Source: Candidatus Fermentibacter sp.
GTDB lineage: Bacteria > Fermentibacterota > Fermentibacteria > Fermentibacterales > Fermentibacteraceae
Direction of reading: 5' to 3'
NCBI GenBank assembly: GCA_030373045.1
Contig: JAUCPW010000018.1
Coordinates: forward strand, 17,078 to 81,077
DNA: 64,000 nt
Part shown: one piece after another, positions 2 to 54,856 of the stretch
Layout of the letters: each line of letters starts with the position of its first letter
Position numbering within the stretch: the first letter of the stretch is position 1
Made by a program: the position numbers and the translations under genes
The notes under the pieces: generated by a model
What the model was told of the DNA's origin: nothing
The model's input: the letters and a program-made list of their open reading frames with translations, nothing else
Databases searched by the model: none

Positions 2-826
2 CTGCACTACGGCGACATGACGGATTCCAGCGCGCTCAACAGGATCCTCGAGAAGTGCGGGCCCGACGAGATCTACAACCTCGCAGCGCAGAGCCACGTG
101 AGGATCTCCTTCGACATGCCGGAGTACACCGGAGACGTCGACGCCCTGGGTGTCGCGAGGCTTCTGGACGCAGTGAGGGAGGTGGGCCTGGCGCGGGAAT
201 GCAGGTTCTACCAGGCCTCCACCAGCGAGATGTTCGGATCGACGCCCCCCCCGCAGAGCGAACTGTCCCCGTTCAGTCCCCGGAGCCCCTACGCCGCCGC
301 CAAGCTGTACGCGCACTGGATGGTGGTGAACGCGAGGGAGGGTTACGGACTGCACGCCTCGAGCGGCATCCTCTTCAACCACGAGTCGCCCAGGCGGGGG
401 GAGAACTTCGTCACCAGGAAGATCGCCCTGGCCGCGGCCAGGATCTCGAAGGGGCTCCAGAAGCGGCTGGTGCTGGGCAACCTGGACGCCGGGCGCGACT
501 GGGGGCATGCCAGGGATTATGTTGAAGCCATGTACCTGATGCTCCGGCAGCCCTCGGGGGACGACTACGTGATCGCCACCGGCAGGATGCACACCGTCAG
601 GGAGTTCGCCGGGCTGGCCTTCGGCCGCCTCGGCCTGGACTACCGGGACTTCGTGGACACCGATCCGTCATACCTGAGACCCACCGAGGTGGACGCCCTG
701 CGCGGCGACCCCTCCAAGGCGGAGAGGGTCCTGGGATGGAAGCCCGCCACGACATTCGAGGATCTGGTGAACGAGATGGTGGACCACGAGGTCGGGAGCC
801 TGGAAGCGGGGAGCGCGGCGAGGTGA
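2..826 (+). CDS. gmd: GDP-mannose 4,6-dehydratase, 5'-truncated at window edge
   Basis: ORF 17..826 continues in frame back to nt 2 (…[33 protein letters not shown]…[47 protein letters not shown]…), the characteristic Gmd C-terminal half; stop TGA 824-826. Confidence 0.85.
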
Positions 827-2040
827 GGATCGCAACCATAGAGGCCTGGAGCGGTGCAGCCGGGGACATGTTCCTCGGAGCGCTGGCAGGGGCCGGCCTG
901 GACATGGCGAGGCTCGAGGCCGGGGTCAGGAAGGTCGTGCCCGAAGGCTGGGCCATGTCCGTGTCCGAGGTCAGGAGGGCCGGACAGGCCGGCACGCGGG
1001 TCTCGATCGGGACCGGCGCTCCGGCAGGCGGTCCCGGCGGGCACAGGCACCTCGCCGAGATACTGGGCATGATCGACAGGGCGGGGCTCTCCGCCCACGC
1101 CTCGACCCTCTGCAGAGATGCTTTCGAGACCCTCGCGGCAGCCGAAGCGAAGGTGCACGGCTGCGCCGTTGCGGACGTGCATTTCCACGAACTCGGCGCG
1201 ATCGACTCGATCGTGGACATCGCGGGCACGATGATCGGCTACGACATGCTGGGCATCACGGAGACCTGGTGCCCCGGGGTCTGCACGGGCTGGGGAACGG
1301 TCAACTGCGCCCACGGCGAACTGCCCGTGCCCGCTCCGGTGACGTCCGTCCTCCTCGAGGGGATACCGGTCGTCTCGGGTGCAGTGAAGGCCGAGATGAC
1401 CACTCCGACGGGCGCCGTCCTGCTCGCCACGCTGGTCGACCACTGGACCCCGCCTCCGCCGGCCATCTGGGACCGCACGGGCCTGGGTGCCGGTGCGTCG
1501 GACCACCCGTCCCCCAACCTGCTCAGGATAAGGCTCGGGACGCCCGGTGTGCCCTGCTGCCCGCGCATGGACGAGGCCGTGGAGCTCGTCACCCTCCTCG
1601 ACGACATGGACCCGAGGCTGTTCCCGAGGCTCCAGGAGGCGGTCATGGCCGCAGGTGCGGTCGACTGCTACGCGGCGCACTGCACCGGCCGCAAGGGAAG
1701 GCCTGCCGTCGAGATCACCGTGGTGTGCAGGGCCGAAGCCCTCGAGTCGTCCATCGACGCTCTCCTCCGAAACTCCACCACGCTGGGAGTGAGGATCAGA
1801 TCAGCCGGATTCCGCACCCTCGACAGGAGCTTCATCGAGGTGTCCACCCCCTGGGGCACAGCGCGCCTGAGGGCCGGAGTCGCTGGGCGGCGCTACGTCA
1901 ACGTCAACCCTGACTTCTCGGACTGCGAGGATCTCGCCAGGAGGGCAGGCCTGCCCGTGAGGGTGGTCCTGGACAGGCTCAAGACGATGGCCTCCGAGCT
2001 GGAGGGCAGAGAAGGCGGCGGCGATGCCGGAGATCCCTGA
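823..2040 (+). CDS. larC: LarC-like nickel-insertion protein (DUF111 family)
   Basis: GTG at 823 overlaps gmd stop (GTGA); N-terminus [27 protein letters not shown] matches the LarC N-terminal GxxGDMxLGAL pattern; internal [16 protein letters not shown] motif typical of LarC/DUF111; 405 aa, full-length fused form. Confidence 0.75.
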
Positions 2041-2704
2041 GGGCTACGACCCCGAGACTCCAGCCTTCGATCTCGCGCGCCGCAGGTTGAAGTCGGGGCT
2101 GCTGTTCGCCCTGGCTCTCGCCGCCTGCGGGGCTCTCGTCGTCTTCCTCTTCGGGCTCCAGCCCCCGATGCAGGGCACCGAACGGTATGCCGCCGTGGGC
2201 GACTTCCCTCCCGACCACGCCTGGTTCAACACCCCCGTTCCCATCAGCCTCTACGACGATCTCAGCGGCCATGTCGTGGTGATGCTCTTCAGCGAGTTCA
2301 GCCGCCTGTCCGATGTCCAGGATCTCTCCCTCTTCGACGACCTGGACGGGATCTATGCTGATCGCCCCGTTGAGATGATCGTGGTGTTCGTGCCTTCGGA
2401 CTCGACCGTCGAGTCATGGAGGAACACGGTCTCCGACTGGGGGATCCGGGTCCCCGTGATCGTGGATTCCGACGGGCTGGTGTCGCAGAGCATGATGGCG
2501 GACAGGTATCCGCTCGTGCAGGTCGTCGACTCCCACGGGCGCGTCGCGGGGCGCTACTACGAATCGTGGACCACGACCGACCTCGAGGGGGTCGTGAACG
2601 ACGTGCTGATGCTCGGGCAGGCGGGGCGCTCCCTGGCCAACGAGCCGTACGAGAACAGCCCGGGCGAGTTCATCCCGCCATCTCTGCGTGACGGCTCGCG
2701 ATGA
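2024..2704 (+). CDS. hypothetical membrane-anchored protein (one N-terminal TM; thioredoxin/redoxin-like fold suspected but no CxxC)
   Basis: ORF 2024..2704; hydrophobic segment LLFALALAACGALVVFLFGL; overlaps larC stop by 17 nt and hydE start by ATGA. Confidence 0.35.
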   Translation: MPEIPEGYDPETPAFDLARRRLKSGLLFALALAACGALVVFLFGLQPPMQGTERYAAVGDFPPDHAWFNTPVPISLYDDLSGHVVVMLFSEFSRLSDVQDLSLFDDLDGIYADRPVEMIVVFVPSDSTVESWRNTVSDWGIRVPVIVDSDGLVSQSMMADRYPLVQVVDSHGRVAGRYYESWTTTDLEGVVNDVLMLGQAGRSLANEPYENSPGEFIPPSLRDGSR

Positions 2705-3852
2705 TGCTGGCGGACGAGAAGCTCGCCGCGATCAGGTCCGGGGATGCCTGCGACCTCTCGAGGCGCGACCTCACGGACATCCTCGGCGCAGGCCCCTCCA
2801 TGGACGAACCCCTCTTCCACGCGGCATCCGCCGTTCTCGAGAGGACGGTCGGACCCGCCGTCTACCTCAGGGGGATAGTGGAGATCTCGAACGCCTGCCA
2901 GAAGAACTGCTTCTACTGCGGGCTCCGGAGGGACAACCCCGGGGTGGCCAGATACAGGATGTCCTCCGAAGAGGTTCTCGAGGCTCTCCAGGAAGGCTTC
3001 CGGGCCGGTCTGAGGTCGTTCCTGCTCCAGTCCGGCGAGATGCTGGGTGACGAGCACATCGAGACCGTCGCACAGGTGCTCTCGGAGTGCGGCAGGCTCT
3101 GGGGCGACTCCGTCAGGATGGTGCTCTCCCTCGGCGAGCTGCCCCGGGCCGTTCTCGACCGCCTGTGGGCCGCGGGGGGGAGGCGCTTCCTCCTTCGGAT
3201 CGAAACATCCGACCGGGAGCTGTACGGCAGGCTCCATCCCCGCGACGGCATCCACCGCTGGAGCGAGAGGGACGCCTGCCTCGGATACCTCTCCGCCTCG
3301 GGATGGCAGACCGGGAGCGGAGTCCTCGTGGGACTCCCCTGGCAGACGGTGGAGCACCTCGCGGGGGATCTCGAGTACCTGCGCGGGATCGACATCGACA
3401 TGTGCGGCATGGGCCCGTGGATAGAACACTCCGGTACGCCCCTCTTCGAGGCCCGGGACTCGGCCCCTCCGGTCAGGGAAAGAGTGTCGCTGACCCTGAG
3501 GATGATCGCTCTTCTGCGCATCATGATGCCGGAGATAAACATATCCGCCACGACCGCCCTCCAGACCCTCGATCCGGATGGTCTGGAGAAGGGGCTCCAG
3601 GCCGGAGCCAACGTCTTCATGCCCAACCTCACTCCGGCCAGGTTCAGGGAGAACTACAACCTCTACGAGGGCAAGGCTCTCGTCAGGGACGACCTGGAGA
3701 CGATCATCAGGTCGGGCAAGGCCAGGTGCGGCTCCGTGAGGAGGCTCCTGGTGCCTGACGATCCCGGGGATCCGCTCCACTACACCAGGAGGCTCGCGGC
3801 CCCCGGCAGAGGCGCAGAAGCCTCCGGAAAGGCGGACGGGGGAGTCCTATGA
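2701..3852 (+). CDS. hydE: radical SAM enzyme of the HydE family ([FeFe]-hydrogenase maturase HydE-like)
   Basis: IVEISNACQKNCFYCGLRRDNPGVARYRMSSEEV (CxxxCxxC followed by GLRRDN, HydE-type rather than BioB/HydG); LSLGELP…RFLLRIETSDRELYGRLHP; C-terminal LTLRMIALLRIMMPEINISATTAL…GANVFMPNLTP pattern of HydE; ATGA overlaps on both sides. Confidence 0.75.
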   Translation: MMLADEKLAAIRSGDACDLSRRDLTDILGAGPSMDEPLFHAASAVLERTVGPAVYLRGIVEISNACQKNCFYCGLRRDNPGVARYRMSSEEVLEALQEGFRAGLRSFLLQSGEMLGDEHIETVAQVLSECGRLWGDSVRMVLSLGELPRAVLDRLWAAGGRRFLLRIETSDRELYGRLHPRDGIHRWSERDACLGYLSASGWQTGSGVLVGLPWQTVEHLAGDLEYLRGIDIDMCGMGPWIEHSGTPLFEARDSAPPVRERVSLTLRMIALLRIMMPEINISATTALQTLDPDGLEKGLQAGANVFMPNLTPARFRENYNLYEGKALVRDDLETIIRSGKARCGSVRRLLVPDDPGDPLHYTRRLAAPGRGAEASGKADGGVL

Positions 3853-4193
3853 TCATCAGGTCTTCTTCCGACGTTAGGCCGCAGCATCTCTCGGACACCG
3901 GCTATTCGAAGGTCGCCAGCAGGCTCCTGGCCGGCACCCGGGACGGCTGCAACAAGATCACGCTCAGGATGCTCACGATCCAGTCCGGCGGGCACATCCC
4001 GAGGGAGGCCGCCAGGGGCGAGAGGGTCATATACGTGCTCTCGGGCGGTGGCGAATACGTCGATGCGGACGGGTTCGCCCACGAGATGAACGCAGGCGAC
4101 ACGGCCGCCGTGCCGGCCTGGGAGGTTTTCCACATGCAGAACAGAAGCGGCGGGGACCTGGTGCTGCTGATCGCTGCGGGGCCGAACCAGTGA
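3849..4193 (+). CDS. cupin-domain protein
   Basis: 114 aa; GERVIYVLSGGGEYVDADGFAHEMNAGDTAAVPAWEVFHMQN beta-sandwich cupin-like pattern; ATGA-coupled to hydE and larB. Confidence 0.45.
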   Translation: MIIRSSSDVRPQHLSDTGYSKVASRLLAGTRDGCNKITLRMLTIQSGGHIPREAARGERVIYVLSGGGEYVDADGFAHEMNAGDTAAVPAWEVFHMQNRSGGDLVLLIAAGPNQ

Positions 4194-5017
4194 CCCCGCG
4201 CGCGAAGCCCGATCCTTTCGAGGAGTACGTCAGGAAGGTGGCCTCGAGCTCCAAACCCCCTGCGGACAGCGAGGAGAAGCTCAGGGACGCCCTCGCCGGA
4301 CCCGTCGAGGCGCCATCGGGAGCTCCGGCCGCGCCGGTTCCCGATGCGCCGGAGCAGGCCGCCACCGCCCCCGCCGGCCCTCCCGCCACCCTCCCCCTGC
4401 CCGAGATCATCATGGGCGGAGGCCTTTCGCCCGTGGAGGTGCTGGCTCTCTTCAAGGCCCAGATCGAGAGGTCGGGCGGAGCGTTCGCGGCAGGGCTGGG
4501 AAGCGATGCCCTCGACCTGCTGAAGAAGGAGTTCCCCGACTGCAGGTACTCGCTGGAATGCATGGCCGTGTCCGCCGGCCCCCCCGCTCCCTCCCCGGCG
4601 GATCCGCGTTTCGTGGCGCTCGTGACGTCGGGCAGGGCCGACATGAAGGCGGCCGCCGAGGCCGAGTTCCTCCTGTCCGAATGCGGCGTGCCCTGTCACA
4701 TGTTCGTCGACTTCGGCTCCACCGGCATCCAGAGGCTGACCTCCTCGATGCAGGAGATAGGCGGAGCGGCGGTGTGCCTCGTGTTCGCGGGCATGGACGG
4801 GGGGCTGCCCTCGATACTCGGAGGTCTCTACGGAGGTCCGGTCGTCGCAGTGCCGACCTCGGGCGGTTCGCGCCCGCCGTTCGGCGGCATCGCCCCCCTG
4901 ATGTCCATGCTGGCCTCGGGCACGCCGGGCATAACCGTGGTCAGCATAGACAACGGCCTCGGAGCCGCTGCCGCTGCTGTCAGGATACTCGGCCTGCGCG
5001 GAGGTGCCGCCTCTTGA
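4190..5017 (+). CDS. larB: LarB-like pyridinium-3,5-biscarboxylic acid mononucleotide synthase (PurE-related)
   Basis: C-terminal half FVALVTSGRADMKAAAEAEFLLSECG…AVCLVFAGMDGGLPSILGGLYGGPVVAVPTSGGSRPPFGGIAPLMSMLASGTPGITVVSIDNGLGAAAAA matches the LarB signature (AGMEGALPSVVAG…PVIAVPTS…VVNIDNGFGAA); Pro/Ala-rich low-complexity insert in N-terminal part. Confidence 0.8.
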   Translation: MTPRAKPDPFEEYVRKVASSSKPPADSEEKLRDALAGPVEAPSGAPAAPVPDAPEQAATAPAGPPATLPLPEIIMGGGLSPVEVLALFKAQIERSGGAFAAGLGSDALDLLKKEFPDCRYSLECMAVSAGPPAPSPADPRFVALVTSGRADMKAAAEAEFLLSECGVPCHMFVDFGSTGIQRLTSSMQEIGGAAVCLVFAGMDGGLPSILGGLYGGPVVAVPTSGGSRPPFGGIAPLMSMLASGTPGITVVSIDNGLGAAAAAVRILGLRGGAAS

Positions 5018-5952
5018 AGTGCCTCGTGACGGGAGGAGCGGGCTTCATAGGCTCCAACCTCGTGCGGGCCCTTGTCGCACGGGGAGACGAGGTGCGGGTG
5101 CTGGACGATCTCTCTACGGGCCGCGCATCCAATCTGGAAGGCGTGGACTGCGAGTTCGTCCGTGGCGACCTCAGGGATGCCGGCGCGGTCGATGCCGCGG
5201 TGGCGGGATGCCTCAGGGTGTTCCATCTCGGAGCCCTCCCCAGCGTGCCCAGGTCGATCGCCGATCCCGTCAGGTCCAACGAGGTGAACGTGCTGGGGAC
5301 CCTGAACGTACTCGAGGCGTCGAGGCGCCGCGGGGTGGGGAGGGTGGTGTTCGCCTCCTCGTCGTCCATCTACGGCGACCAGCCCGTGCCGGTGAAGTCG
5401 GAGGACCTGCCGCCCAGGCCTCTCTCGCCCTATGCCGTCAGCAAGCTCGCGGCCGAGAAGTACTGCCAGGTCTTCCACGGCGTCTACGGCCTCGAGACCG
5501 TCTGCCTGAGGTACTTCAACGTCTTCGGTCCCCGCCAGGATCCCGGCAGCCCCTATGCCGCGGTCGTCCCGATATTCACGAAGAGGATCCTCGACGGGCT
5601 GCCGCCCCTGGTGAACGGCGACGGATGCCAGTCGCGCGACTTCACCTTCGTGGACAACGTGGTGGACGGCAATCTCAGGGCAGCCGAGGCCCGGGGCGCC
5701 GAGGGGCTGGTGATGAACGTCGCCTGCGGAGGCAGCATCCCGGTCAACACGCTCGCCTCCGAGATCGCGAAACTGCTGGGTCGGGAGGACCTCGCGCCCG
5801 TCCACGCCCCGGAGAGGGCGGGGGAGGTTCGCGACAGCAGGGCCGACATAGGCCTCGCCAGGAGGATACTCGGCTACGAGCCCTCGGTGGCGTTCGAGGA
5901 GGGGCTCAGGCGGACGGTCATGTTCATGGCCGGAGGCGGCGCCGGACCCTGA
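5014..5952 (+). CDS. NAD-dependent nucleotide-sugar epimerase/dehydratase (GalE/WbpP-like)
   Basis: TTG 5014 overlaps larB stop (TTGA); (M)[19 protein letters not shown] Rossmann start, SSSSIYGD…PYAVSKLAAE (YxxxK); the track's 4558 start is an upstream artefactual extension overlapping larB. Confidence 0.75.
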   Translation: MKCLVTGGAGFIGSNLVRALVARGDEVRVLDDLSTGRASNLEGVDCEFVRGDLRDAGAVDAAVAGCLRVFHLGALPSVPRSIADPVRSNEVNVLGTLNVLEASRRRGVGRVVFASSSSIYGDQPVPVKSEDLPPRPLSPYAVSKLAAEKYCQVFHGVYGLETVCLRYFNVFGPRQDPGSPYAAVVPIFTKRILDGLPPLVNGDGCQSRDFTFVDNVVDGNLRAAEARGAEGLVMNVACGGSIPVNTLASEIAKLLGREDLAPVHAPERAGEVRDSRADIGLARRILGYEPSVAFEEGLRRTVMFMAGGGAGP

Positions 5953-5954
5953 GG

Positions 5955-8027
5955 CTACCGGCCGGGGCCGAACGCCCCCGGCTGCCCGATGCTGACGGTC
6001 CAGGCCGACTGGCCGTCGGAACCGGTCCCCCATGAGATCCTGGCAGGCCCGGCCGGAGTCCTGGCGCCCACGGAAAGCCCGGCTCCCCAGGATTCCGAGC
6101 CTTCATCGGGTTCGAGCGGCGTCTCCCAGTCCCACGATCCGGCCGCCCGGACCGAGGCGAAGAACGGGCCCCTGAAGTCCCTGCTGAGGTCGAGTCCCAG
6201 GGCGAACCTCTCACGGGCCGGGAGCGAGTTCCATGCGTGCCCCGGAATGGCGTGGGCGACTGTGAGCCTGTCGTACTGCCATTCCTCCACGTCCCCCGAC
6301 GAGAGCCTGGTCCATCCCCAGAGCCTCGCCGAAGCCCTCCTCCCCATCGGCAGCACCCTCGCAAAGTCGATGTCGAGGATCTGGTGCACGTGCCTGAGAG
6401 GGCTCAGGGATATCTCGGCCCTCACCAGCCCTCCCTCCCTCGGGTTCATCGGGTCGTCCCAGGTCTGCGTCATGCCCCTTACGAAGATCCGGCCGAACGA
6501 ACTCCAGCCTGCGCCGGGGGAGCACCTGGCCGTGAGGCCCGTCCCGATCTGCGACAGCCCGAACCAGCTCAGCGATATGCCGTGCGCGAGCTCGGCCGAG
6601 AGCCTGTTCTCGACGCTCGGGTCCGAACCGCTGTCGGACGGGGCCGGGACGACCATCTGCCAGGTCGACAGGGCGAGCTGCTGGAAGAACCTGCTGCGGG
6701 GCGCGTGGTCCGTGCCCGACATCTCGGCGAACGCATATCCGTCGCCTCCGCCGAGGCCGAGCGAGACCCGCCGGCCCGTGTCCAGGAAGTTCCTGGTGCG
6801 GATGCCGAGCCTGCCCTCGAATCCGGTCTCGTTGTGATAGGCCATGCCCAGACCTATCTCCGACGGATCGCGCTCCTCGAGATGCATCGTGAGGCAGGCC
6901 GCCCCGTCGCCCGACCTCGAGATCTCCGGCCGCACCGATCCGAAGAGGCCCGAGGAATACAGCAGCTCGACCTCGTGCCTGAGGCTCGAGGGAGTGAGCG
7001 TGTCGCCCCGCGACACCTCCAGCCAGGGGAAGACGGCCCTCTCCGGGAGCCTCCTGAGCCCGCCGAGCATCACGTCTCCCACCACGGTCCGGCCGCCGGT
7101 CGCCGGGAGACGGCGGAATGGCCTCCCGGTCAGTTCGGGGTAGCTGTCGAGGAGTGCGAGCCCGGCCCTGTAGCCGGCCGCTATCAGGGAATCGGCGTCA
7201 CCGAAGTCCCAGAGGGCGGCCCCGCCCAGGTCTGGTCTCACGGTGTAGTCGGCCCGCCGTTCGTAGATCCCGTTCAGTGTGCCCATCAGAGCCTGCAGGG
7301 TGAGCGTCCCCGCCTCCAGCAGCGTGGGTTTCTCCGGCAGGGGGCCTCTTTCCGAGGAGACGTCGACCGCGATGACGGGCAGGCCCCAGGTGCGCGCCGC
7401 GATGTCGACCGGGAGGTTGTCGACCACGCCTCCGTCGACCAGGAGCATGCCCCCGTCCCTGACCGCGGGAAAGACAGCCGGGAAGGCCATCGAGGAGAGC
7501 ATTGCGGTGGACAGTTGTCCGGAATCGCTGACGATGCGGCTCCGGCTCTCCAGGTCGAAGGAGACGATGCGCACGGGCACGGGCAGGTCGTCGAAGCCGT
7601 ATCCCACACTGAGCTGCGTGAAGGAGGTGAGCGAGACGAGCAGGGATGCCACCCTCTGTGTGGAAACCGCGCCCGGGGGCAGCACCGGCGTCATGCCCCT
7701 GAGGCCGAGCGTGACGACCTCCATCTCGCCCTCGAGCCGCTGCGGCAGGAAGGACATCTCCCGCGAGGGCTCGGCGGAGAAGAGCTCTCCCCAGTCGATG
7801 CTCCGCGCTATGCTGTCGATCTGGGAGGCGGTCCAGCCCGATGCGTAGAGGCCCGCCACGAGACCGCCCATGCTGGTGCCGGCGACCGTCTTGACCGGGA
7901 CTCCCCGCTCCTCGAACGCGAGCAGCACGCCGACATGGGCCAGCCCTCTCGCCCCGCCCCCCGACAGGGCGACCGAGTACCCCTGCACCTGGGAAAGCAC
8001 GGCGGACATGAGCAGCATCCCCAGCAT
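5955..8027 (-). CDS. patatin-like phospholipase fused to C-terminal Omp85-type beta-barrel (PlpD-like, type Vd autotransporter architecture)
   Basis: N-terminal signal peptide then GGGARGLAHVGV (oxyanion), GTSMGG (GxSxG), LLVDGGVVDNLP (DGG catalytic Asp); C-terminal ~300 aa Gly/Trp/Ser-rich alternating pattern typical of an outer-membrane beta-barrel. Confidence 0.65.
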   Translation of the reverse strand: MLGMLLMSAVLSQVQGYSVALSGGGARGLAHVGVLLAFEERGVPVKTVAGTSMGGLVAGLYASGWTASQIDSIARSIDWGELFSAEPSREMSFLPQRLEGEMEVVTLGLRGMTPVLPPGAVSTQRVASLLVSLTSFTQLSVGYGFDDLPVPVRIVSFDLESRSRIVSDSGQLSTAMLSSMAFPAVFPAVRDGGMLLVDGGVVDNLPVDIAARTWGLPVIAVDVSSERGPLPEKPTLLEAGTLTLQALMGTLNGIYERRADYTVRPDLGGAALWDFGDADSLIAAGYRAGLALLDSYPELTGRPFRRLPATGGRTVVGDVMLGGLRRLPERAVFPWLEVSRGDTLTPSSLRHEVELLYSSGLFGSVRPEISRSGDGAACLTMHLEERDPSEIGLGMAYHNETGFEGRLGIRTRNFLDTGRRVSLGLGGGDGYAFAEMSGTDHAPRSRFFQQLALSTWQMVVPAPSDSGSDPSVENRLSAELAHGISLSWFGLSQIGTGLTARCSPGAGWSSFGRIFVRGMTQTWDDPMNPREGGLVRAEISLSPLRHVHQILDIDFARVLPMGRRASARLWGWTRLSSGDVEEWQYDRLTVAHAIPGHAWNSLPARERFALGLDLSRDFRGPFFASVRAAGSWDWETPLEPDEGSESWGAGLSVGARTPAGPARISWGTGSDGQSAWTVSIGQPGAFGPGR

Positions 8028-8125
8028 CGGTCTCCTCCGGAGGCTTTACCCGGCCGGGGCGGTCGGGTATCTTACTTTGGATTCACCTATCATACAGGAT
8101 CGCATACACTCAGAAGGGAGCCCCT

Positions 8126-10333
8126 GTGAAGCTTCTGCTGTCCATGCTGGCAGTCCTGGCTACCTGCTCATATGCCGGACTCACCACCGTCGAGACATCG
8201 GTCGACGGAGTCGTCCTCGACCTCGACACGCCCTCTCCCAGGTTCGTCGAGACCGGGCTGGACGGCGGAGTCTACACCGGCGTCATGGTCGACGGCGCCG
8301 AGAACCTGGCCGAGGCAGGCCTCCCGGCCCTGCCGGTCTTCAGGACCTGGATCATCGCACCCATCGGCGCCGACATCGATGTCTCCCTCTCGGGCGAGAA
8401 CATCAGCACCATGAACATCCCGGGCATCTCGGCCGTCGCCCCCGGCATCCCTTCCGTGCCGAAGGACATGCCGAGGGATTCGTATGATCTCGTGTTCGAT
8501 CCCGCCGTCTATGTACGGGGCGAGGCCTATCCCTCCTCCTGGGTGCGCCTGGTCGACGCCGGGATGATGCGCGGCCGCCGGCTGATCCTCGTCGAGGTCG
8601 CCCCGGTCCGCTGGAACCCGGCCGACCGCTCCGTCGATGTCCTGAACTCCGCCACGATCAGCCTCGGCTTCTCGGGCGGCGACCTGGGCGCCACGTTCTC
8701 CGAGGCCGAGAGGATGGCCGCCTCCGGCTTCGAGCCCCTGCTCTCCTCGATGGCCGTCAACTACGGCACCTTCAACTCCTTCGACGGCACCGACTCCCCG
8801 ATGGGCGGCTACCTGATCATCGCCCACCCCGACTTCTACGAGACCTCCATGGATGACTTCGTCACCTGGAAGTCCATGTGCGGCTATGAGGTGACGCTCG
8901 TCTCCACGGCCACCACCGGCTCCACCGCCGCCGAGATCGAGGCCTACATCCTCGACGCCCTCTCCACCTGGAGCACGCCTCCGCAGTACGTGCTCCTCGT
9001 GGGCGACACCGGCTTCGTCCCCGGCAACACCGCCACCGCCTACAGCGGCGTCACCGATCTCTACTACGTGACGCTCGACGACGGCGGCTGGGTGCCCGAC
9101 GCGTTCATCGGCCGCTTCTCCGTCACCACCACCGGTCAGGCCATCATGATGGCCGACAGGGTGATAGACTACGAGCAGTGGGCCTACTCGGGTTCGGGCG
9201 CCTGGCTGCAGAGCCAGGGCTGGATCGCAAGCAGCGACAACTCCAGCATCTCCGAGGGCACCCACAACTACTGCATCACCAATTATGCCGCGCCGCTGGG
9301 CTTCACTGCCGACAAGCTCTACCCGGCCACCTACGGCTCCACCGCCGCGGACGTGGTCACCGCAGTGAACCAGGGCGAGTCGATGCTGACCTTCTCCGGC
9401 CACGGCTCCCAGACGAGCTGGGGCGACATGTCGTTCGGATCGAGCAACTTCAACCAGCTCACCAACGACAACATGTTCCCGGGCGTCCTGTCGCACGCTT
9501 GCCTGACAGGCGACTACGGCACCGCCACAGCCTGGTGCGAGACCTGGACGAGGACTCCGAGCAAGGGCGGCCTCTGGTTCTGGGGTTCCGTCCCCTCCTC
9601 GTACTGGACCGAGGACGACGTCCAGGAAAAGGGCGAGTATCTCAACTTCCTCGGAAACGGCATCTACTGGCCGATGGGCTTCCTCAACGGCGGCAAGCTC
9701 TCGCTGTATGCCTACCTCAGCGGCGGCGGCCTCACCAAGTACTACTTCGAGGGCTACAACCTGATGGGTGACCCGTCCGTGGAGATGTGGACCTGGCAGA
9801 CCTCGGGCGGCGTGCCCATGACCATGAGCGTCTCGCACCCCGCCTCGATCAGCGGTTCAGGCCCTGTCACCGTCACGGTCTCCGGTGCCTCCGACGACGC
9901 GCTGGTCTGTCTCTACAAGGCCGGCGAGGTCCTCGAGCGCGACTGGACCACCGGTGGCAGCGTGACCCTGTACGTCGGCCCCGCCACCACCGGCACCATG
10001 AACGTCACGGTCCGCAGGCACAACTACAAGCCCTACATGGGCACGATCAGCGTCACCGGCGTCGGCATCGAGGGCGGCGAGCCCGCGGGCCCCTTCACGA
10101 TGAGCTTCGCCAATCCGATGCCCGCGGCCGGCGTCGTGGCCATCACGGGTGAAGGCGCTGCCACGCTCGAGGTGTTCGACCTCACGGGCAGGATCGTGGC
10201 GAGACCCTTCCAGGGCGATGTCTCCGGCACGATGTCCGTGAACGCCACCGAGGGCCTGGCTTCCGGCGTCTACTTCTTCAGGCTGACGGGTGCGGGCGAG
10301 ACGACCTCCCGCGCCGTGACGGTCATCCGCTAG
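8126..10333 (+). CDS. secreted cysteine peptidase family C25 (gingipain-like) with C-terminal T9SS-type sorting domain
   Basis: GTG start, signal peptide LLLSMLAVLATCSYA; C25 core YLIIAHPDFYE…YVLLVGDTGFVPG…MLTFSGHGSQTSWGD (His)…LSHACLTGDYG (Cys); C-terminal ~80 aa …LEVFDLTGRIVARPF…GVYFFRLTGAGETTSRAVTVIR resembling a Por secretion tail. Confidence 0.75.
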   Translation: MKLLLSMLAVLATCSYAGLTTVETSVDGVVLDLDTPSPRFVETGLDGGVYTGVMVDGAENLAEAGLPALPVFRTWIIAPIGADIDVSLSGENISTMNIPGISAVAPGIPSVPKDMPRDSYDLVFDPAVYVRGEAYPSSWVRLVDAGMMRGRRLILVEVAPVRWNPADRSVDVLNSATISLGFSGGDLGATFSEAERMAASGFEPLLSSMAVNYGTFNSFDGTDSPMGGYLIIAHPDFYETSMDDFVTWKSMCGYEVTLVSTATTGSTAAEIEAYILDALSTWSTPPQYVLLVGDTGFVPGNTATAYSGVTDLYYVTLDDGGWVPDAFIGRFSVTTTGQAIMMADRVIDYEQWAYSGSGAWLQSQGWIASSDNSSISEGTHNYCITNYAAPLGFTADKLYPATYGSTAADVVTAVNQGESMLTFSGHGSQTSWGDMSFGSSNFNQLTNDNMFPGVLSHACLTGDYGTATAWCETWTRTPSKGGLWFWGSVPSSYWTEDDVQEKGEYLNFLGNGIYWPMGFLNGGKLSLYAYLSGGGLTKYYFEGYNLMGDPSVEMWTWQTSGGVPMTMSVSHPASISGSGPVTVTVSGASDDALVCLYKAGEVLERDWTTGGSVTLYVGPATTGTMNVTVRRHNYKPYMGTISVTGVGIEGGEPAGPFTMSFANPMPAAGVVAITGEGAATLEVFDLTGRIVARPFQGDVSGTMSVNATEGLASGVYFFRLTGAGETTSRAVTVIR

Positions 10334-10387: not shown

Positions 10388-13300
10388 TTACCGCGGGGAA
10401 GGCCTGAAGTCCCCGACGTGACGAGCGACCCCGGGTGACAGGAAGGCCAGCCACACCGAGACCTCGCGCCCGAGCGCGTCGGCCAGGTCCTGCCCGTAGC
10501 CGGCCTGCCTCGCGATGTATCCCGAAGCCGCGGATGGCACTTCCGCCTCAGTCACGGAGTCCGTCTTGTAGTCCAGTGCGAAGAGCCTCCCGCCCTGTTC
10601 CGCGAGGATGTCGACATAGCTCCGGAGGCAGCCCTGGCGGCCCCGGGTGATGTACGGATACTCCCTGAGGGCGCGGGCCGTCTTCCGGATGTCGAACGGC
10701 AGCTTCATCGCGAAGAGGTTCAGGACCAGTTCGATCACCCTGGCAGGGTCGGCGCCGGAAGTGTCGCGCAGGGGTCTCCTCGCATCCAGCCATGCCTCCG
10801 GCTCCGCCAGGTCGATCTTCTCCAGGATCCTGTGCACGGTGAGCCCCAGCCTGATGGCCGGAGACCCGTCGGAGGCGTCAGGCGCCGGCTCCTCCGGGAC
10901 GACGGCGGACAGAACGGGGAGCGGCCTCTCCGAAGGGACCTGCGCAGGATCGATCCTCCGGACCGCCCTGTGCACCAGACCTCCCGTTCCCGGGGCCTCC
11001 GAGACGTCCAGCAATCCGTTGTCCGCCTCCCAGGCTCCCCGCAGCGCATTCACGAGTATCCCGTCGAAGCCTTCGGGCGCACGAGGCGGATCCTCCCAGG
11101 CGGATCTCCGGACGAAGACCACGAGCCCAGTCCTTGCCCTCGTGAGTGCGACGTACACCAGGCGCCTGGCCTCCGCCGCATCCTGCTGCGCCTCCCTCTC
11201 CCTGAGCTCGTCGAGCAGCGGCGTGCCGAGGTCCGCACCGAAGGAGACGGCTGCCCTGCGGGCCTTCTCGTGGAGCAGGACGGGTCCTCTGGACCTCCTC
11301 GAATCGTGCTTCCCGAGGGGGGGGATGAGCATGACGCCGTCGAACGTTAGCCCCTTCGACTTGTGGATGGTGGTCACCGAGACGGTCCCCGGGGCAGTCA
11401 CGGGGGAAGGCTCCTCCAGTATCCCCTCTCCGGGGCCATCGGCGAGGGCCTCCCTAAGGTCGGCGAGCGAGGCGAAAGCCCCGCCCGCGGCCTGCTCGAT
11501 CAGAAAGCCCAGATTAGAGAGCCTCCGGTCGGGTTCCCATCCCGAGGCGGCGAGTACCGGTGCGATCTCGGTCTCGCAGAGCAGGAGATGGAGGAAGTCG
11601 CCGACCGGCATGCGGGCGGAGGCGCTGCGGAGCCGCGACAGCATCTCGCAGGCCCTGGCCGCCTGCGGTACCCTGCCGGCGAAGCCCTCCGGGAGCGAAG
11701 GCCATCCAGCGAGGCCCGCCGCCACCGCTCTCGTGATCTCACCGTCCTCCACACCGAAGAAGGGAGACCTCAGAGTGTGGATCAGAGCCCTCCCGTCACC
11801 CGGGAACGAAAGGCAGGAGAGCATCTCCCTCAGGTCGACGGTCTCCGGCCTCGCCTTGAATGTCCTCCCCACTGTCGCCGAGTACGGTATGCCGGCCTCC
11901 GACAGGCGTGCGAGAAGTATCCCCGCATGTGTCCCCGCCGTCATGAGGATGGCGGCCCCGCCCCGGGCGGGCTCCCCTTCCGGCCCGCACGCCAGGCTGC
12001 GGGCGCACCATCCGGCGGCCATGTCCACGAGTTCGCCGGGTGTCGGACCCGGATCGTCACCGGTCGCTGCATCGTCGAGAAGGACGACGACCGGTCTGGG
12101 GCCTTCGGGAGCGTCCGGCCGCGGCTCGAAATCCGAGTATCCGCAGTCGAAGGGGGAGGTGCCGCCGAAGATGAACGGCCCGGCCGCGTTGACCAGCGAG
12201 ACGATGGCGCGGCTGCTCCTGAAGCTCACGGTGATCCTCTCCGAGAGAGTGCCCGCCGTGTCGGCCTCGAAGCCCCGGCGCTCCTCGGCGTATAGCTCGA
12301 GATCGGCCTGCCTCCAGGCGTAGATCGACTGCTTCGGGTCGCCGACCACCGTTATCGACCCGCGCCCGTAGCCCCCGGAGCCCGCGAGGATGCTCCTGAA
12401 GATGGCGATCTGCTCTGAACTCGTGTCCTGGTATTCGTCCACGAGGAAATGGACGAACCTGGAGGAGATGGCCCTCCTCAGGTCCTCCGACTTCTCGAGC
12501 GCCCCGCACAGGCGCGAGAGTATCTCGTCGAAGGACAGGTTCGACCGGTCGGATGCCCGGATCGAGCGGAGCCGCTCCGTGAACGGGGGGACGAGGCGCT
12601 CGAACTGCTCCGCCAGCGGCAGCGAGCGGAGGATCACCTTGAACCGCCCGAAGAGGCTCTTCGCCTCGGCCAGGGTCCCGTCCGGCCATGAGGCCTTCCT
12701 GCCGCCCTGGAGATTGATGGCGCCGACGGCCCTGTCGATCGTGCCCGGCGGGGCGTGGCCGTCCAGCACGGGCCGGGCAAGTTCGATGAAGCAGGCGATC
12801 TTCGAGGCCATCGCATCGGTCGGATCGGCCTCACCGGCAAGAGCTTCCAGCCGGGCCAGCGCCGATGACGCGGCGGCACGGGCGCCGGCGCCGTCGCTGC
12901 TCAGAGAGGCGGCATCCCCCGCCCAGGGCCTGGAGGCGAGGGTCATCGCGATGCCCGGCAGGCTGCTGCCGCAGGCGGCGACGAGGTCGGCGCACCCGGC
13001 GAGCCTCGCGGGGTCCTCCAGCAGGTGCTCCTCCCAGAGCCTCGACAGGTCGGCTGAAGTGAAGGCGCACGCAGAGATCTCGAAGGAGGGGTCCGTGTCC
13101 GTGAGGTGCGGGTACTCCCTGAGCATCGAGGATGCGAAGGAGTGGATCGTCGTCACGTAGGCCCCCGGGATCTGCGCCGACAGCCTGCGCTTGAGCTCTC
13201 CTTCGCCGCCTTCGTCGGGCATTGCCGCGATCCTCGACCTGATCCGCCGCCTGAGCTCGGCCGCAGCCGCCTCGCCGAAGGTCAGGACCGCCATACTGTC

Positions 13301-13456
13301 GATGCCCCCGAAATGCCGCGCGAGCCGCATGACCCTGTCGGTCATCAGGAACGTCTTGCCGGTGCCGGCGCTGGCCTCGACGGACACGGACCGCGACACT
13401 TCGGAGACTATCATCTCCCTTGCGACGGCGTCGGCAGGGCGGGGGGGCTCAGGCAT
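10388..13456 (-). CDS. addA: AddA-like ATP-dependent helicase/nuclease (UvrD/REP helicase plus PD-(D/E)XK nuclease)
   Basis: N-terminal Walker A SVEASAGTGKTF, UvrD-type helicase body, C-terminal …LDYKTDSV…YIARQAGYGQDL nuclease motif; longest ORF starts at 13504 but ATG at 13456 (MPEPP…) gives an 8-nt overlap with addB stop; start uncertain. Confidence 0.65.
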   Translation of the reverse strand: MPEPPRPADAVAREMIVSEVSRSVSVEASAGTGKTFLMTDRVMRLARHFGGIDSMAVLTFGEAAAAELRRRIRSRIAAMPDEGGEGELKRRLSAQIPGAYVTTIHSFASSMLREYPHLTDTDPSFEISACAFTSADLSRLWEEHLLEDPARLAGCADLVAACGSSLPGIAMTLASRPWAGDAASLSSDGAGARAAASSALARLEALAGEADPTDAMASKIACFIELARPVLDGHAPPGTIDRAVGAINLQGGRKASWPDGTLAEAKSLFGRFKVILRSLPLAEQFERLVPPFTERLRSIRASDRSNLSFDEILSRLCGALEKSEDLRRAISSRFVHFLVDEYQDTSSEQIAIFRSILAGSGGYGRGSITVVGDPKQSIYAWRQADLELYAEERRGFEADTAGTLSERITVSFRSSRAIVSLVNAAGPFIFGGTSPFDCGYSDFEPRPDAPEGPRPVVVLLDDAATGDDPGPTPGELVDMAAGWCARSLACGPEGEPARGGAAILMTAGTHAGILLARLSEAGIPYSATVGRTFKARPETVDLREMLSCLSFPGDGRALIHTLRSPFFGVEDGEITRAVAAGLAGWPSLPEGFAGRVPQAARACEMLSRLRSASARMPVGDFLHLLLCETEIAPVLAASGWEPDRRLSNLGFLIEQAAGGAFASLADLREALADGPGEGILEEPSPVTAPGTVSVTTIHKSKGLTFDGVMLIPPLGKHDSRRSRGPVLLHEKARRAAVSFGADLGTPLLDELREREAQQDAAEARRLVYVALTRARTGLVVFVRRSAWEDPPRAPEGFDGILVNALRGAWEADNGLLDVSEAPGTGGLVHRAVRRIDPAQVPSERPLPVLSAVVPEEPAPDASDGSPAIRLGLTVHRILEKIDLAEPEAWLDARRPLRDTSGADPARVIELVLNLFAMKLPFDIRKTARALREYPYITRGRQGCLRSYVDILAEQGGRLFALDYKTDSVTEAEVPSAASGYIARQAGYGQDLADALGREVSVWLAFLSPGVARHVGDFRPSPR

Positions 13457-16400
13457 CCTCATCGACGCCCTCCGTACCGGCATCCCAGGAAGGCAGCTCG
13501 CCACCGGGCCCTCTTGTCGCGGCCAGCTTCGGCCCTATCCTCTCGTCCGGCCCCTTCCTGCAGAGCCCGGCCGCCCAGCAGCCCCTGCACGGGGCACCGG
13601 TGAGCGCTCCCGCGGGTGGGAACATGCCGGCACGGATCGAGCGCACCGCCGACTCCGCGCGCGACAGCGAGGCTTCCATCACCGGCCCGAGTTCGTCCCG
13701 CCCGAATGTGGTCTCGAGGGAGGGCTTCGAGGCATACAGCAGGCCGGCCCTGTCCACGGGCGTTCCTAGAGCTTCGAGGATCGCGGCGTAGAGAGGCACC
13801 TGGAGGTATTCGCCCCCGTCGATGCCCTTCCGCACGGCCCGGAGGCCCGGGGTCGCGCTGCCCGTCTTGAGATCGAGGACGACCCTCCCGGCCCCGTTGC
13901 GCAGGATCATGTCGATCCTTCCGGCGAGCTCGATGCCGCCCGCCCCGGTGCGTGCACGGCGCCCCGTCTCGATGGAATCATCCCCGTCGGGCTCCAGCCC
14001 CTCGTCCTCTAGGAAGGCCAGGATGCCTGCGAGCTCTGCCGCGGCCGCCTCCGCGAACCTTCCGGCGAGCACGGGGCTGCCCATCAGCCCTGCGAGATCG
14101 AGCTCCGCACAGGCCTGCGCGACCGCCCCGGAGGCCGGCCTGCCCGGCTCGGCGAGGCAGAGGGAGAGGGCTCTGTGCATGACGTTGCCCCTCGCTAGGG
14201 GGGGAGGCTTCGAGAGGATCGCCGCATCGCACGGTTCGGCCAGGTGCCAGAGCCTCGCGGCCATGTAGCGGAACGGGCAAGCCGCCCAGTCCTGGAGCCT
14301 GGAGGGCGAGAACGCGCCGTCGGCCAGCCCGGGCATCGCGCCCAGGATTCCGTCGCCAGGGCCGAACGGCGATCCGCGGTCGAGCCTGGAGGCCTCGACG
14401 GCGCAGGCCTCGGCGAAGAACGGCCTGTGCAGGGGGAGGGTCCCTCCGAAGGCGTCCCTGGTATCCGCCTGGCCGGCCCGTGAGCCCCCGAAATGGATGG
14501 AGACGGGGTCGGCCGGGAGCGTGGATGCACATCCCGCGAGCATTCCGGCGATCCGCTCCGAAGGCTCCACGAGGGGCTCGATGAACGGCGACCAGGAGAC
14601 CTCGCGGCCGGCGGCGTCCATGGTCATCCTCACCAGCGTGAGGCGCTCGCCAGCGCATTCCAGAACCTGCCTGAAGAGAAGAGCCTGCTCCGTCTCCCGC
14701 AGGGACGACGGAGGAAGCTCGAGGCCCTTCCGCAGAGCATCGGGCAGCCTGGGATCGTTCCTGGCCACCCCCGGCAGGACGTCCTCCTCGAGGCCGAACA
14801 CGATGACGTGGCGGAAGCTCGTGCCCCTGGCCTCCTCCATCTCGAGGAGCTCCACCGATCCCGGGGTGCCCGGCCTCTCCATGAAGACCGTCTCGAGGAT
14901 CACGTCCAGCATCTCCGCGAACCTGTCGAATCCGACGCTCCCGCGGTACACGGGCGCGGCGAGACCGGGGAGCGATCCGACCGCCGCTCCGGCATGGCCG
15001 TCCGGCCCGGTGAGGATCATCGCGGCCCTGCACAGACCTTCGAGCATGACCCCCGGCGGGGCGGTGCCGGGGATCAGTGCGTCACCTTCGAGGAGGGCCT
15101 TCGCGAGCGCGGAAGCCCGTGCGTGGACGGCCCCGTCGAGAGCCGCCATCCTTCCGAGCATCTCCCTGCCCCTTCTGACCCCCGATGCCTGCAATGCGAG
15201 CGCGATCTCGTCGGGCGAGGCCCGGAATGCGTCCGCCACCGCCGCCGAACCGGACACGCGGGTCAGCAGGCCGTGGTGGAAGTCGAGGTTCCTCAGCCTG
15301 GCGATGTCAGAGAGGAGCGAACCCGCGGGCAGGCTTCCGAGCCTGCACTTCCAGGGCCGGGCGACCGGGATCCCCTCCGCCCTGAGGAACGTCTCGACGG
15401 TTTCGAAGGCCTGTCCCTTCCCTACGACCGCGGTCTGCGAAGCGGGGATCCCTGATGCGGACGGACCCGCGAGAGAATCGATCACGGCCCTCGCGACCCC
15501 GGCCGGGCCGGGCGCGTTCACCAGCCTGAATCCCTCCGGGATGATCCTGATGTCGCCCGAAAGGAGGGCATCGGCAAACGTGAGGAACCGGGACGGGGGG
15601 CGGTTCGAGTCGGCGCGCATCCTGTCGCCGGCCCTGCCGTCCAGCAGGAGTCTCGTCGGCCTGCCGATCCCCTTCCAGGCTTCGAGGGCGGACGGGACCG
15701 GGCACATGAAGACCACGCAGGGGAGGGATTCGACCAGGTGCCTCAGCATGCGCCTCTGCAGGGGGTTCAGGTCGAGGAACCCGTAGAGGATGATCGAGCG
15801 GTACCGGGATGGCCGTGACGACAGGGCCGACATGGCGGCCTGGTCGTGAGTGCCGGGGAAGAGGCCCGTCCTGAGCCGCACATACTTCCGGAACGCGATC
15901 CCGACGGCCTCGACCGTGCTCCGTTCAGCCGCGGTGACGGGATCGCCCCCGGATTCGGATACGAAGGCGCTCACGTCGTAGGAGGCGGGATCTATGCCCC
16001 TGTCCAGCAGATCCTTCTCGAAGAATGCGGAAAGGGAGCGGGCGGCATGGGCGACGCCCGAGAGCGCGGAGTAGGGCAGTCCGGCCGGGATGGATCCCAT
16101 CGCATCCATGGCGAGCAGCGTGCGGTCAGCCTCGCCCGGGTCCTCGCAGGAGAAGGGATCGGAAGCGAGCCTGGCGGCGAGCTGGGGGAATCCGGGGAGA
16201 ACCTCCAGCCCCGGCAGGATTCCCTCGCCGGCATCGGCGAGCACCCGGAGGACCCTCCTCTGGAGGGCCGATCCCGCCGGGACGAGGGCTGCGGGGCCGA
16301 GGGCAAGGGCTCTGGAAACCTCGCCGGGAAGGACCGATTCGAGCGCCCTGTAGTGTCCTTCGATCAGTTTGAGCATGTTCGAAGATACCGGGCGACAGGG

Positions 16401-54810: not shown

Positions 54811-54856
54811 CGGTCCGGGGGCGCGCGCCCCGGACAGGCCGTCCGGAGTTGGACAA

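Follow-up and report, generated by a model that had tools for sequence, protein, structure and literature searches.

A phylum-wide Fermentibacterota operon of hydE, nucleotide-sugar genes and a lar module that may be eroding or repurposed

Nickel-pincer cofactors are an active field, in which mining of gene neighborhoods has yielded new cofactor users (NphT) as well as cofactor variants (NPAD). A 64,000-nucleotide (nt) stretch of the Candidatus Fermentibacter sp. contig JAUCPW010000018.1 (positions 17,078 to 81,077; here called the window) opens with seven genes that mix nucleotide-sugar enzymes with LarC, a LarB-like protein and a HydE-type radical S-adenosylmethionine (SAM) enzyme, and the question raised by this locus is whether such genes serve one pathway. 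A previous sequence-only reading of this DNA had suggested that they could specify a modified pincer-type cofactor or a nucleotide-linked metabolite. Our analysis favors a different answer, to which we assign a probability of roughly 0.58: the genes would constitute a co-transcribed, phylum-specific composite operon of three functionally separate modules, of which the Lar module is decaying or repurposed. Rather than a new pathway, the gene string appears to be pieced together from modules already known, and a phylum-wide coupled neighborhood of lar, radical SAM and short-chain dehydrogenase/reductase (SDR) genes of this kind would be a caution for neighborhood mining.

Layout and conservation of the operon

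The open reading frame (ORF) listing and direct reading of the sequence revealed seven genes on the plus strand, joined in a chain of start/stop overlaps:

2..826, + strand: C-terminal part of gmd, 274 amino acids (aa), 5′ end beyond the window edge
823..2040, + strand: larC, GTG start, LarC1 and LarC2 domains
2024..2704, + strand: gene of a membrane-anchored thioredoxin (Trx)-fold protein, 226 aa, with a 17-nt overlap to larC and a 4-nt overlap to hydE
2701..3852, + strand: hydE, radical SAM, CX3CX2C at residues 66/70/73
3849..4193, + strand: small cupin, 114 aa, TM1459-like
4190..5017, + strand: larB-like, GTG start, PurE-fold C-terminal domain
5014..5952, + strand: SDR 4-epimerase of the WbpP/WbgU/TviC type, TTG start

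Both sources confirm the translationally coupled seven-gene operon that the sequence-only reading had proposed. The junctions consist of GTGA at 823, a 17-nt overlap at 2024-2040, ATGA at 2701 and 3849, GTGA at 4190-4193 and TTGA at 5014; the earlier junction list stands at 823, 2024, 2701, 3849 and 5014 and needs correction at 4190, where it gave ATGA. The family identities assigned there were recovered by profile searches, the LarB model being matched below its cutoff. All junctions within the block overlap (6/6), whereas 8/19 same-strand junctions elsewhere in the window do so (one-sided Fisher test, p = 0.017). Since overlapping junctions are common in this genome, which has a G+C content of 68%, these overlaps argue for co-transcription and only weakly for a shared function or pathway. 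A consensus scan detected no terminator or promoter inside the block, and Rfam detected no riboswitch or other RNA in the window or in the related loci L008 and L004. Start/stop overlaps comparable to those of the window were also present in L001 and L004.

The neighborhood comparison comprised a tblastn map of 86 loci plus single-locus neighborhoods, and the homologue scan took one genome per species; L004 and L024 are the same MLS_C scaffold. The closest homologues of the radical SAM protein were found in Candidatus Fermentibacteria and Aegiribacteria, with near-identical proteins in Ca. Fermentibacteria bacterium RA.bin127 (L007, 99%) and in L008 (98%); an exact look-up of the window protein retrieved no contig. 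The order LarC-Trx-HydE-LarB-epimerase recurs across Fermentibacterota, down to a HydE identity as low as 52%, and is therefore not a one-off arrangement. The Trx and radical SAM genes and the downstream epimerase are kept in every Fermentibacterota locus whose contig spans those positions, with larC upstream and larB downstream in most of the loci. The gmd and cupin genes belong to the operon in the Fermentibacter-type subclade only, gmd being missing from it in Aegiribacteria-type relatives. At the locus of Ca. Fermentibacter daniensis (L009), larC is absent and the cupin and LarB-like genes are kept; Hyd24-12 UBA5074 (L010) has neither larC nor larB and keeps gmd-Trx-HydE-cupin-epimerase; and GCA_964423505.1 (L005) carries Trx-HydE-epimerase only. 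In a neighbor-joining tree of the radical SAM proteins, the lar losses fall on separate branches, and in three lineages or more the Trx-radical SAM-epimerase core has outlasted larC, larB or both. Collectively, the seven-gene string is real, probably co-transcribed and conserved across the uncultured phylum Fermentibacterota.

Two further observations concern the surroundings of related loci. The short contigs L013 and L014 carry a Fermentibacterota-type HydE alone (58% identity, with V134 and L199), beside a UvrA-like gene; they are binned as Myxococcota/Polyangiaceae, and mis-binning or lateral transfer is possible. In the two Aegiribacteria-type loci L004 (6048..7228) and L005 (7974..9205), a bPH_5 and a DUF1847 gene lie together directly upstream of the cluster, and in L004 larE is located between this pair and larC.

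LarC, the LarB-like protein and the absence of larE

The LarC protein matched PF01969 at 352 bits and exceeded the cutoffs of both domain models (LarC1 TIGR00299, 180 bits against 90; LarC2 NF052512, 97 against 50), and it aligned end to end with M. thermoacetica LarC (PDB 12bi; 287 bits). Substitutions of strong effect were documented at H108, H116, H118, H160, D15, R71, E104, E119, D124, D128 and E187 (PMC13510736), and the window protein keeps D15, H70, R71, H72, E104, H108, H116, H118, E119, D124, D128, H160 and E187. The moderate-effect residues H53, Y180 and H226 are not conserved in it. Judged by its domains and residues, LarC is an intact CTP-dependent nickel-insertion cyclometallase. 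Its gene has the second highest ratio of nonsynonymous to synonymous substitution rates (dN/dS) in the block, 0.13-0.22.

The LarB-like protein scored 152 bits against NF033503, below the cutoff of 175; its relatives in L004 and L009 scored 239 and 191 bits, respectively. Alignment with L. plantarum LarB (7mj0/8soq) over residues 48-242 revealed the changes Cys221 to Gly, Ser127 to Ala, His158 to Gln, Tyr204 to Ser and Glu180 to Asp, of which four were compared with 150 family representatives (50% identity clusters):

Position 221: Cys in 146/150; Gly in the window
Position 204: Tyr in 145/150; Ser in the window
Position 127: Ser in 100, Ala in 31 and Thr in 10 of 150, hence naturally variable; Ala in the window
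Position 180: Glu in 94 and Asp in 56 of 150; Asp in the window

The residues D128, R159, T200 and S201 and an acidic residue at position 180 are kept. Reportedly, Cys221 forms a covalent C4 adduct (cysteinyl-pyridine) that activates C5 for carboxylation; a literature search on a LarB C221A variant found nothing. Within the clade, position 221 is occupied by G, S, T or A, and Cys is retained in the Aegiribacteria-type and in several Fermentibacter-type relatives, the Aegiribacteria LarB (the 239-bit protein) being canonical with Cys221 present. The dN/dS of the larB-like gene, calculated against L008, L007, L001 and L009, amounted to 0.16-0.31, which is the highest value in the block and well below 1; a pseudogene was rejected for this reason. 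Compensation by another cysteine was rejected as well, the remaining Cys positions of the LarB-like protein being present also in the Cys221-bearing relatives. We infer that the protein would no longer carboxylate nicotinic acid adenine dinucleotide (NaAD). Its nucleotide-binding residues are retained and purifying selection still acts on it, so that it probably binds or hydrolyzes a dinucleotide and no longer makes the mononucleotide of pyridinium-3,5-biscarboxylic acid (P2CMN). The sequence-only reading had counted LarB and LarC as two of the three dedicated enzymes of the cofactor, which stands for LarC and is overstated for the LarB-like protein without the catalytic Cys221. What sets the locus apart is solely that a Cys-less LarB is paired with a LarC that is intact.

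Closer inspection of the LarB-like protein also revealed a low-complexity Pro/Ala-rich linker at residues ~40-70 (window 4300..4400; PSGAPAAPVPDAPEQAATAPAGPPATLP), which separates the LarB core from a conserved peptide at the N-terminus (PDPFEE.VR..AS). The linker is specific to the Fermentibacter-type subclade and varies in length.

As the sequence-only reading had noted, the window holds neither LarE nor LarA. Pfam scans of essentially all long ORFs of the 64 kb yielded neither, a scan for the PP-loop motif SGGxDS yielded no LarE, and tblastn searches of the window with the LarE of a relative and with nine diverse LarE queries were equally negative. It had also been considered that larE or larA might lie immediately upstream of the window; in the 98%-identical L008, both are absent from the 7 kb upstream of gmd, which encode a SpoIIE phosphatase and a GFO/IDH/MocA-ADH fusion. 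By contrast with the window, seven distinct loci of the Aegiribacteria type have a PP-loop ORF corresponding to larE upstream of larC in divergent orientation, and the Aegiribacteria LarE is above cutoff (TIGR00268, 173 bits against 150) with a CxxC...C pattern. Since LarE and LarB are both canonical in these basal relatives, the ancestral Lar set was the standard three-enzyme pathway. A word-indexed protein search with the Aegiribacteria LarE recovered a Fermentibacterota LarE clade at 39-100% identity, and none of the clusters found lies on the 2.52-Mb contig of the L001 operon.

A second position for larE was revealed by L090 and L092, from two other Fermentibacterota genomes, in which the gene directly follows an S49 peptidase gene and is unlinked from larC, LarB being canonical. 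This neighborhood is syntenic with 16-29 kb of the window, including an Omp85-like gene, and the orthologues in question are as follows:

20472..22802, + strand: S49 peptidase gene, product 46-48% identical to the L090/L092 orthologues over the full length
DUF1015 gene: product 62% identical between relative and window
GT2 gene: product 74% identical between relative and window
FemAB-like gene: product 64% identical between relative and window
22799..23716, + strand: APH-family kinase gene (PF01636, 79 bits), which fills the larE slot after the S49 gene

The start of the APH-family phosphotransferase gene and the stop of the S49 peptidase gene share 4 nt, and the nine LarE queries revealed no LarE similarity in the slot (22799..23716). 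Hence, both syntenic larE positions, the one divergent to larC and the one after the S49 gene, are empty in the window. An ORF with an IS200-like Y1 transposase domain (19444..20418; 324 aa, PF01797) lies a short way upstream of the S49 gene, close to where larE is missing.

These data bear on the possibility that the Lar module still works. In that case, NaAD would be carboxylated independently of Cys221, perhaps with the aid of the cupin, LarC would insert nickel, sulfur would come from an unlinked or divergent LarE or from another PP-loop enzyme, the cofactor user, of the LarA type or another enzyme, would be encoded elsewhere and HydE would be an unrelated neighbor. Purifying selection on LarC with all its functional residues intact is compatible with this scenario, as is the dN/dS of the larB-like gene together with the retention of D128, R159, T200 and S201. 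Also in its favor, Ala is common at position 127 in natural LarB proteins (31/150) and the S127A variant of L. plantarum LarB is in preparative use; moreover, larE is unlinked from larC in L090 and L092, which have a canonical LarB. Nevertheless, we regard a working module as unlikely: position 221 is Cys in nearly all LarB proteins and is said to be the adduct-forming residue, and its free variation within the clade (G, S, T, A) is what one typically sees at a position that has ceased to matter. The window protein has lost Y204 and H158 too, the two larE slots are empty and no LarE was found on the L001 contig, and at the locus of Ca. F. daniensis the LarB-like gene persists in the absence of larC.

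Compared with the larB-larC-larE systems known from the Lactiplantibacillus plantarum lar operon and from larA-less larBCE clusters, the window has a canonical LarC and a LarB-like protein of the LarB fold, and its basal relatives hold all three genes, with LarE of the CxxC-C type. However, larB and larC are split in the window by three unrelated genes, whereas they are adjacent in L087 and L091; larE (in the 64 kb and in both slots) and larA are missing; and the LarB-like protein lacks Cys221, Tyr204 and His158 and falls below the family cutoff.

The HydE-type protein and the remaining genes

The call of the radical SAM protein as a HydE-family member in the sequence-only reading proved correct. 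The protein passed the equivalog cutoff of TIGR03956 (281 bits against 254.6), matched the T. maritima HydE (TmHydE) structures at 225 bits and kept 64/69 of the positions that are at least 93% conserved in hydG/hydF-linked HydE proteins plus T. maritima HydE. In quantum mechanics/molecular mechanics work on TmHydE, M224 and M291 are the Fe(I) ligands, R54, T134, R155 and T269 contact cyanide (CN), and E58 and K309 form a pair (PMC11826987). In Tm numbering, the window protein retains the cysteines C63, C67 and C70 as well as R54, E58, R155, L157, R159, E161, M224, T269, M291 and K309. The replacement T134V was found in 18/18 clade members and also in 1/29 hydG/hydF-linked HydE proteins, and M199L is the only other clade-wide change in the HydE pocket. 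The dN/dS of hydE was 0.05-0.20. Every sequence criterion used thus marks the radical SAM protein as a HydE of the ordinary, H-cluster-maturing kind.

The next-closest homologues (37-46% identity) belong to Bacteroidales, Anoxychlamydiales, Syntrophomonadaceae and others. In these outgroup loci, hydG and/or hydF, confirmed with NCBIfam models, flank hydE in 29/62 cases, and lar, Trx-like or epimerase neighbors occur in 0/62. Within 10 kb of hydE, neither hydG nor hydF was found in the 24 clade loci (L001-L005, L007-L024), and profile scans of the 64-kb window did not find hydA, hydG or hydF. The [FeFe]-hydrogenase catalytic subunit (K18332, hndD) is listed for 14/19 Fermentibacterota metagenome-assembled genomes, including three Ca. 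F. daniensis genomes and MLS_C (PMC10116835, Table S4), and Hamilton et al. described MLS_C as encoding an [FeFe]-hydrogenase of the periplasm together with every maturation gene needed (PMC4846661). We infer that HydE acts for a hydrogenase whose genes lie elsewhere in the genome. In this second module of the proposed operon, HydE would convert the [Fe(Cys)(CO)2(CN)] synthon made by HydG into an Fe(I) dimer, the precursor of the H-cluster, with the membrane-anchored Trx-fold protein, which has no conserved redox motif, as its coupled partner. The locus thus resembles the hydG-hydE-hydF operons (T. maritima HydE, 3CIW/7O1O) in the equivalog match and in sharing CX3CX2C, M224, M291, R54, R155, T269, E58 and K309; it differs from them in that hydE of Fermentibacterota is never beside hydG or hydF and is coupled to the Trx-fold gene instead, and in that T134V and M199L are fixed in the clade.

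The Trx-fold protein gave weak Redoxin and ResA matches, and its best solved relatives were the Trx-like domains of NHLRC2 and SOQ1. A single N-terminal hydrophobic helix (LLFALALAACGALVVFLFGL) follows RRRLK and constitutes a transmembrane anchor. At the CxxC position the window protein reads SEFS, and 18 relatives carry C/S-x-x-non-Cys. Wherever the contig extends that far, this gene directly precedes the radical SAM gene (L001-L005, L007-L012, L015, L017-L024). We know of no role for such a Trx-fold protein in H-cluster maturation. Although the NHLRC2, SOQ1 and TlpA-ResA thioredoxin-like domains are the best sequence matches of this 226-aa protein, it has no Cys in the degenerate CxxC motif (its relatives have at most one there) and no NHL domain, and coupling to hydE has not been described for that family. 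A periplasmic [FeFe]-hydrogenase has been reported for the phylum, and the conserved coupling of hydE to a redox-dead membrane-anchored Trx-fold protein is an unexplained lead on how its H-cluster is matured.

The fragment of Gmd, a GDP-mannose 4,6-dehydratase, matched two models, TIGR01472 (402 bits) and PF16363 (370 bits); its orthologue in L008 is full length (332 aa), and the dN/dS of gmd was 0.055-0.08. The epimerase, an NAD-dependent SDR, matched PF01370 at 215 bits, with TviC as the top NCBIfam match and with WbgU, WbpP and a capsular-polysaccharide epimerase as best solved relatives (220-242 bits). Its GxxGxxG (GGAGFIGS) and YxxxK (YAVSK) motifs are intact, and the gene is conserved in position at 61-86% identity in all Fermentibacterota loci, including the lar-less ones. 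Taken together, the dN/dS values of gmd, hydE, the cupin gene and the epimerase gene ranged from 0.03 to 0.20. In the favored composite operon, Gmd and the WbpP/WbgU-type 4-epimerase would form a module of nucleotide-sugar enzymes for envelope glycans.

About 15% of genomes have larBCE and lack larA (PMC11796402), and a new user of the nickel-pincer cofactor, NphT, has been described (PMC13524815). The larA-less lar clusters that lie beside genes annotated as NAD(P)-dependent follow the same genomic logic as the window locus. However, those clusters have LarB, LarC and LarE, and their neighbor lacks a normal NAD site and has His/Lys for the cofactor, whereas the SDR of the window has canonical NAD-binding and catalytic motifs and is kept in lar-less relatives. 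The SDR epimerase or the cupin as a hidden, NphT-like user of the pincer cofactor was rejected, both being kept in lar-less relatives (L005, L010) and the SDR having a normal NAD site. A different neighborhood, that of L091 (JGI 3300033165, Ga0334892_1000331, 1209..8759), was noted on an FCB-type contig: larE is divergent from adjacent larC-larB, which are followed by an OKR_DC Orn/Lys/Arg decarboxylase gene and a different radical SAM gene (441 aa, Fer4_12), with an SDR epimerase gene 2 kb off. This neighborhood could be a candidate for a non-LarA pincer-cofactor user.

The features of the radical SAM protein and of the SDRs allow the joint pathway of the sequence-only reading to be weighed. 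According to it, the HydE-like radical SAM protein, LarC, LarB, the cupin and the SDRs would together make a modified pincer cofactor or nucleotide-linked metabolite, with the radical SAM protein replacing or supplementing LarE. The interleaved larC-trx-radical SAM-larB order, conserved phylum-wide with start/stop overlaps, fits this proposal, and so do the clade-wide T134V and M199L in the HydE pocket, the lack of hydG/hydF within 10 kb in the 24 clade loci and the failure to find LarE in the window (tblastn) or on the L001 contig. Yet the protein keeps the Fe(I)-binding methionines and, T134 excepted, the CN-contacting residues, V134 being found also in a HydE linked to hydG/hydF, and basal relatives with the same radical SAM protein have canonical LarE and LarB, so that nothing needs replacing. 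Furthermore, Trx-radical SAM-epimerase survived the loss of larC and/or larB in those three or more lineages, the epimerase with its intact NAD and YxxxK motifs is kept without lar genes, a LarB or LarC gene is present in 0/62 outgroup HydE loci, and two LarB loci outside Fermentibacterota have no radical SAM gene. A joint pathway is therefore disfavored, because the HydE pocket is kept, the LarE and LarB of relatives are canonical and the Trx-HydE-epimerase core is independent of lar, and we consider it very improbable. A modified pincer cofactor or nucleotide-linked metabolite as the product fares no better in view of an ordinary HydE, a phylum with [FeFe]-hydrogenase genes, a canonical ancestral LarE and a LarB-like protein without Cys221. 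A literature search on the combination of LarB, LarC and HydE found nothing relevant.

The cupin matched Cupin_2 at 40 bits, and its best solved match was the TM1459 family at 30 bits, which is a fold-level match; the four-His metal site of TM1459 is not preserved, His52/His54 being aligned to Glu/Ala in the window cupin. With a dN/dS of 0.03-0.10, its gene has the lowest value in the block. In Aegiribacteria, a 36-39% identical cupin is encoded 4-7 kb off, beside a patatin gene in L004. Among species-level loci, all those with the cupin in the operon lack Cys221 (5/5; five loci compared with 12). An obligatory link between the cupin and the loss of Cys221 was nevertheless rejected on account of L089, where the cupin coexists with a LarB that retains Cys221; the cupin insertion thus came first, and the link is phylogenetic.

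The cupin could point to a neofunctionalized pair, in which it and the LarB-like protein act outside pincer chemistry, for example as a dinucleotide pyrophosphatase or as a (de)carboxylase of another substrate, with LarC as a soon-lost leftover. In the subclade that later lost Cys221, the cupin gene came to lie immediately before the larB-like gene, the two sharing 4 nt; it is the most constrained gene of the block, Ca. F. daniensis keeps it with the LarB-like gene in the absence of larC, and the second activity of the LarB family is phosphoanhydride hydrolysis. We nonetheless hold this to be improbable: L089 demonstrates that the two events are separable, L010 has a cupin without any LarB and its cupin does not need one, and all cases belong to one subclade, which reduces the co-occurrence to one or two events. 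There is also no known biochemical precedent.

Proposed decay or repurposing of the Lar module

In the favored composite operon, the third module would be a remnant of the ancestral standard nickel-pincer set (larE / larC ... larB). Its erosion would have involved the disappearance of larE from both positions held in relatives and the loss, in the LarB-like protein, of Cys221, the nucleophile on which carboxylation of NaAD at C5 depends, with LarC intact yet under relaxed constraint and with larC, or larC and larB, already deleted in sister lineages. An intact LarC beside a selected, Cys221-less LarB-like protein, with no LarE detected, would represent a snapshot of pathway decay or, less likely, variant pincer chemistry. 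For the latter, the Fermentibacter-type LarC would work without LarE and with the Cys221-less LarB, possibly together with the cupin or the HydE-type radical SAM protein, to give a pincer-type or nicotinate-derived metallocofactor by a non-established route, such as Cys-independent carboxylation or a non-LarE sulfur source; we consider this highly doubtful.

Several observations weigh against a composite operon with a degenerating Lar module. LarC keeps all catalytic residues at a dN/dS of ~0.13-0.22, and the value of the larB-like gene (0.16-0.31) indicates that it is still selected for some function; since both proteins are still under selection, a module that is repurposed or still working fits at least as well as one that is decaying. 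The interleaved larC-trx-hydE-larB order is stable throughout the phylum and tightly coupled, which is unusual for unrelated genes, and T134 (the CN contact in TmHydE) and M199, otherwise invariant in HydE, are changed clade-wide. In addition, the evidence for hydrogenase genes comes from phylum tables and MLS_C, and the genome-wide absence of LarE is deduced from the word-indexed search and one relative.

The phylum offers a natural series of Lar loss, which runs from a full larE/larC/larB set through an unlinked larE and a Cys-less LarB to the loss of larC and of both larC and larB. The rare, selected clade of Cys221-less LarB proteins would provide a cheap biochemical way to ask whether the cysteinyl-pyridine adduct is obligatory.

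Elsewhere in the window, 51028..58603 carries two tandem paralogues (~1260 aa, 17-nt overlap) with C25 gingipain-type peptidase domains and FlgD-Ig-like C-termini, and a third C25 peptidase, with a type IX secretion system (T9SS) sorting tail, is encoded at 8126..10333. The minus strand of 10388..16505 encodes an AddA/UvrD-like helicase (1038 aa) and a PD-(D/E)XK nuclease (1018 aa), whose genes overlap by 56 nt and are syntenic in L001-L003.

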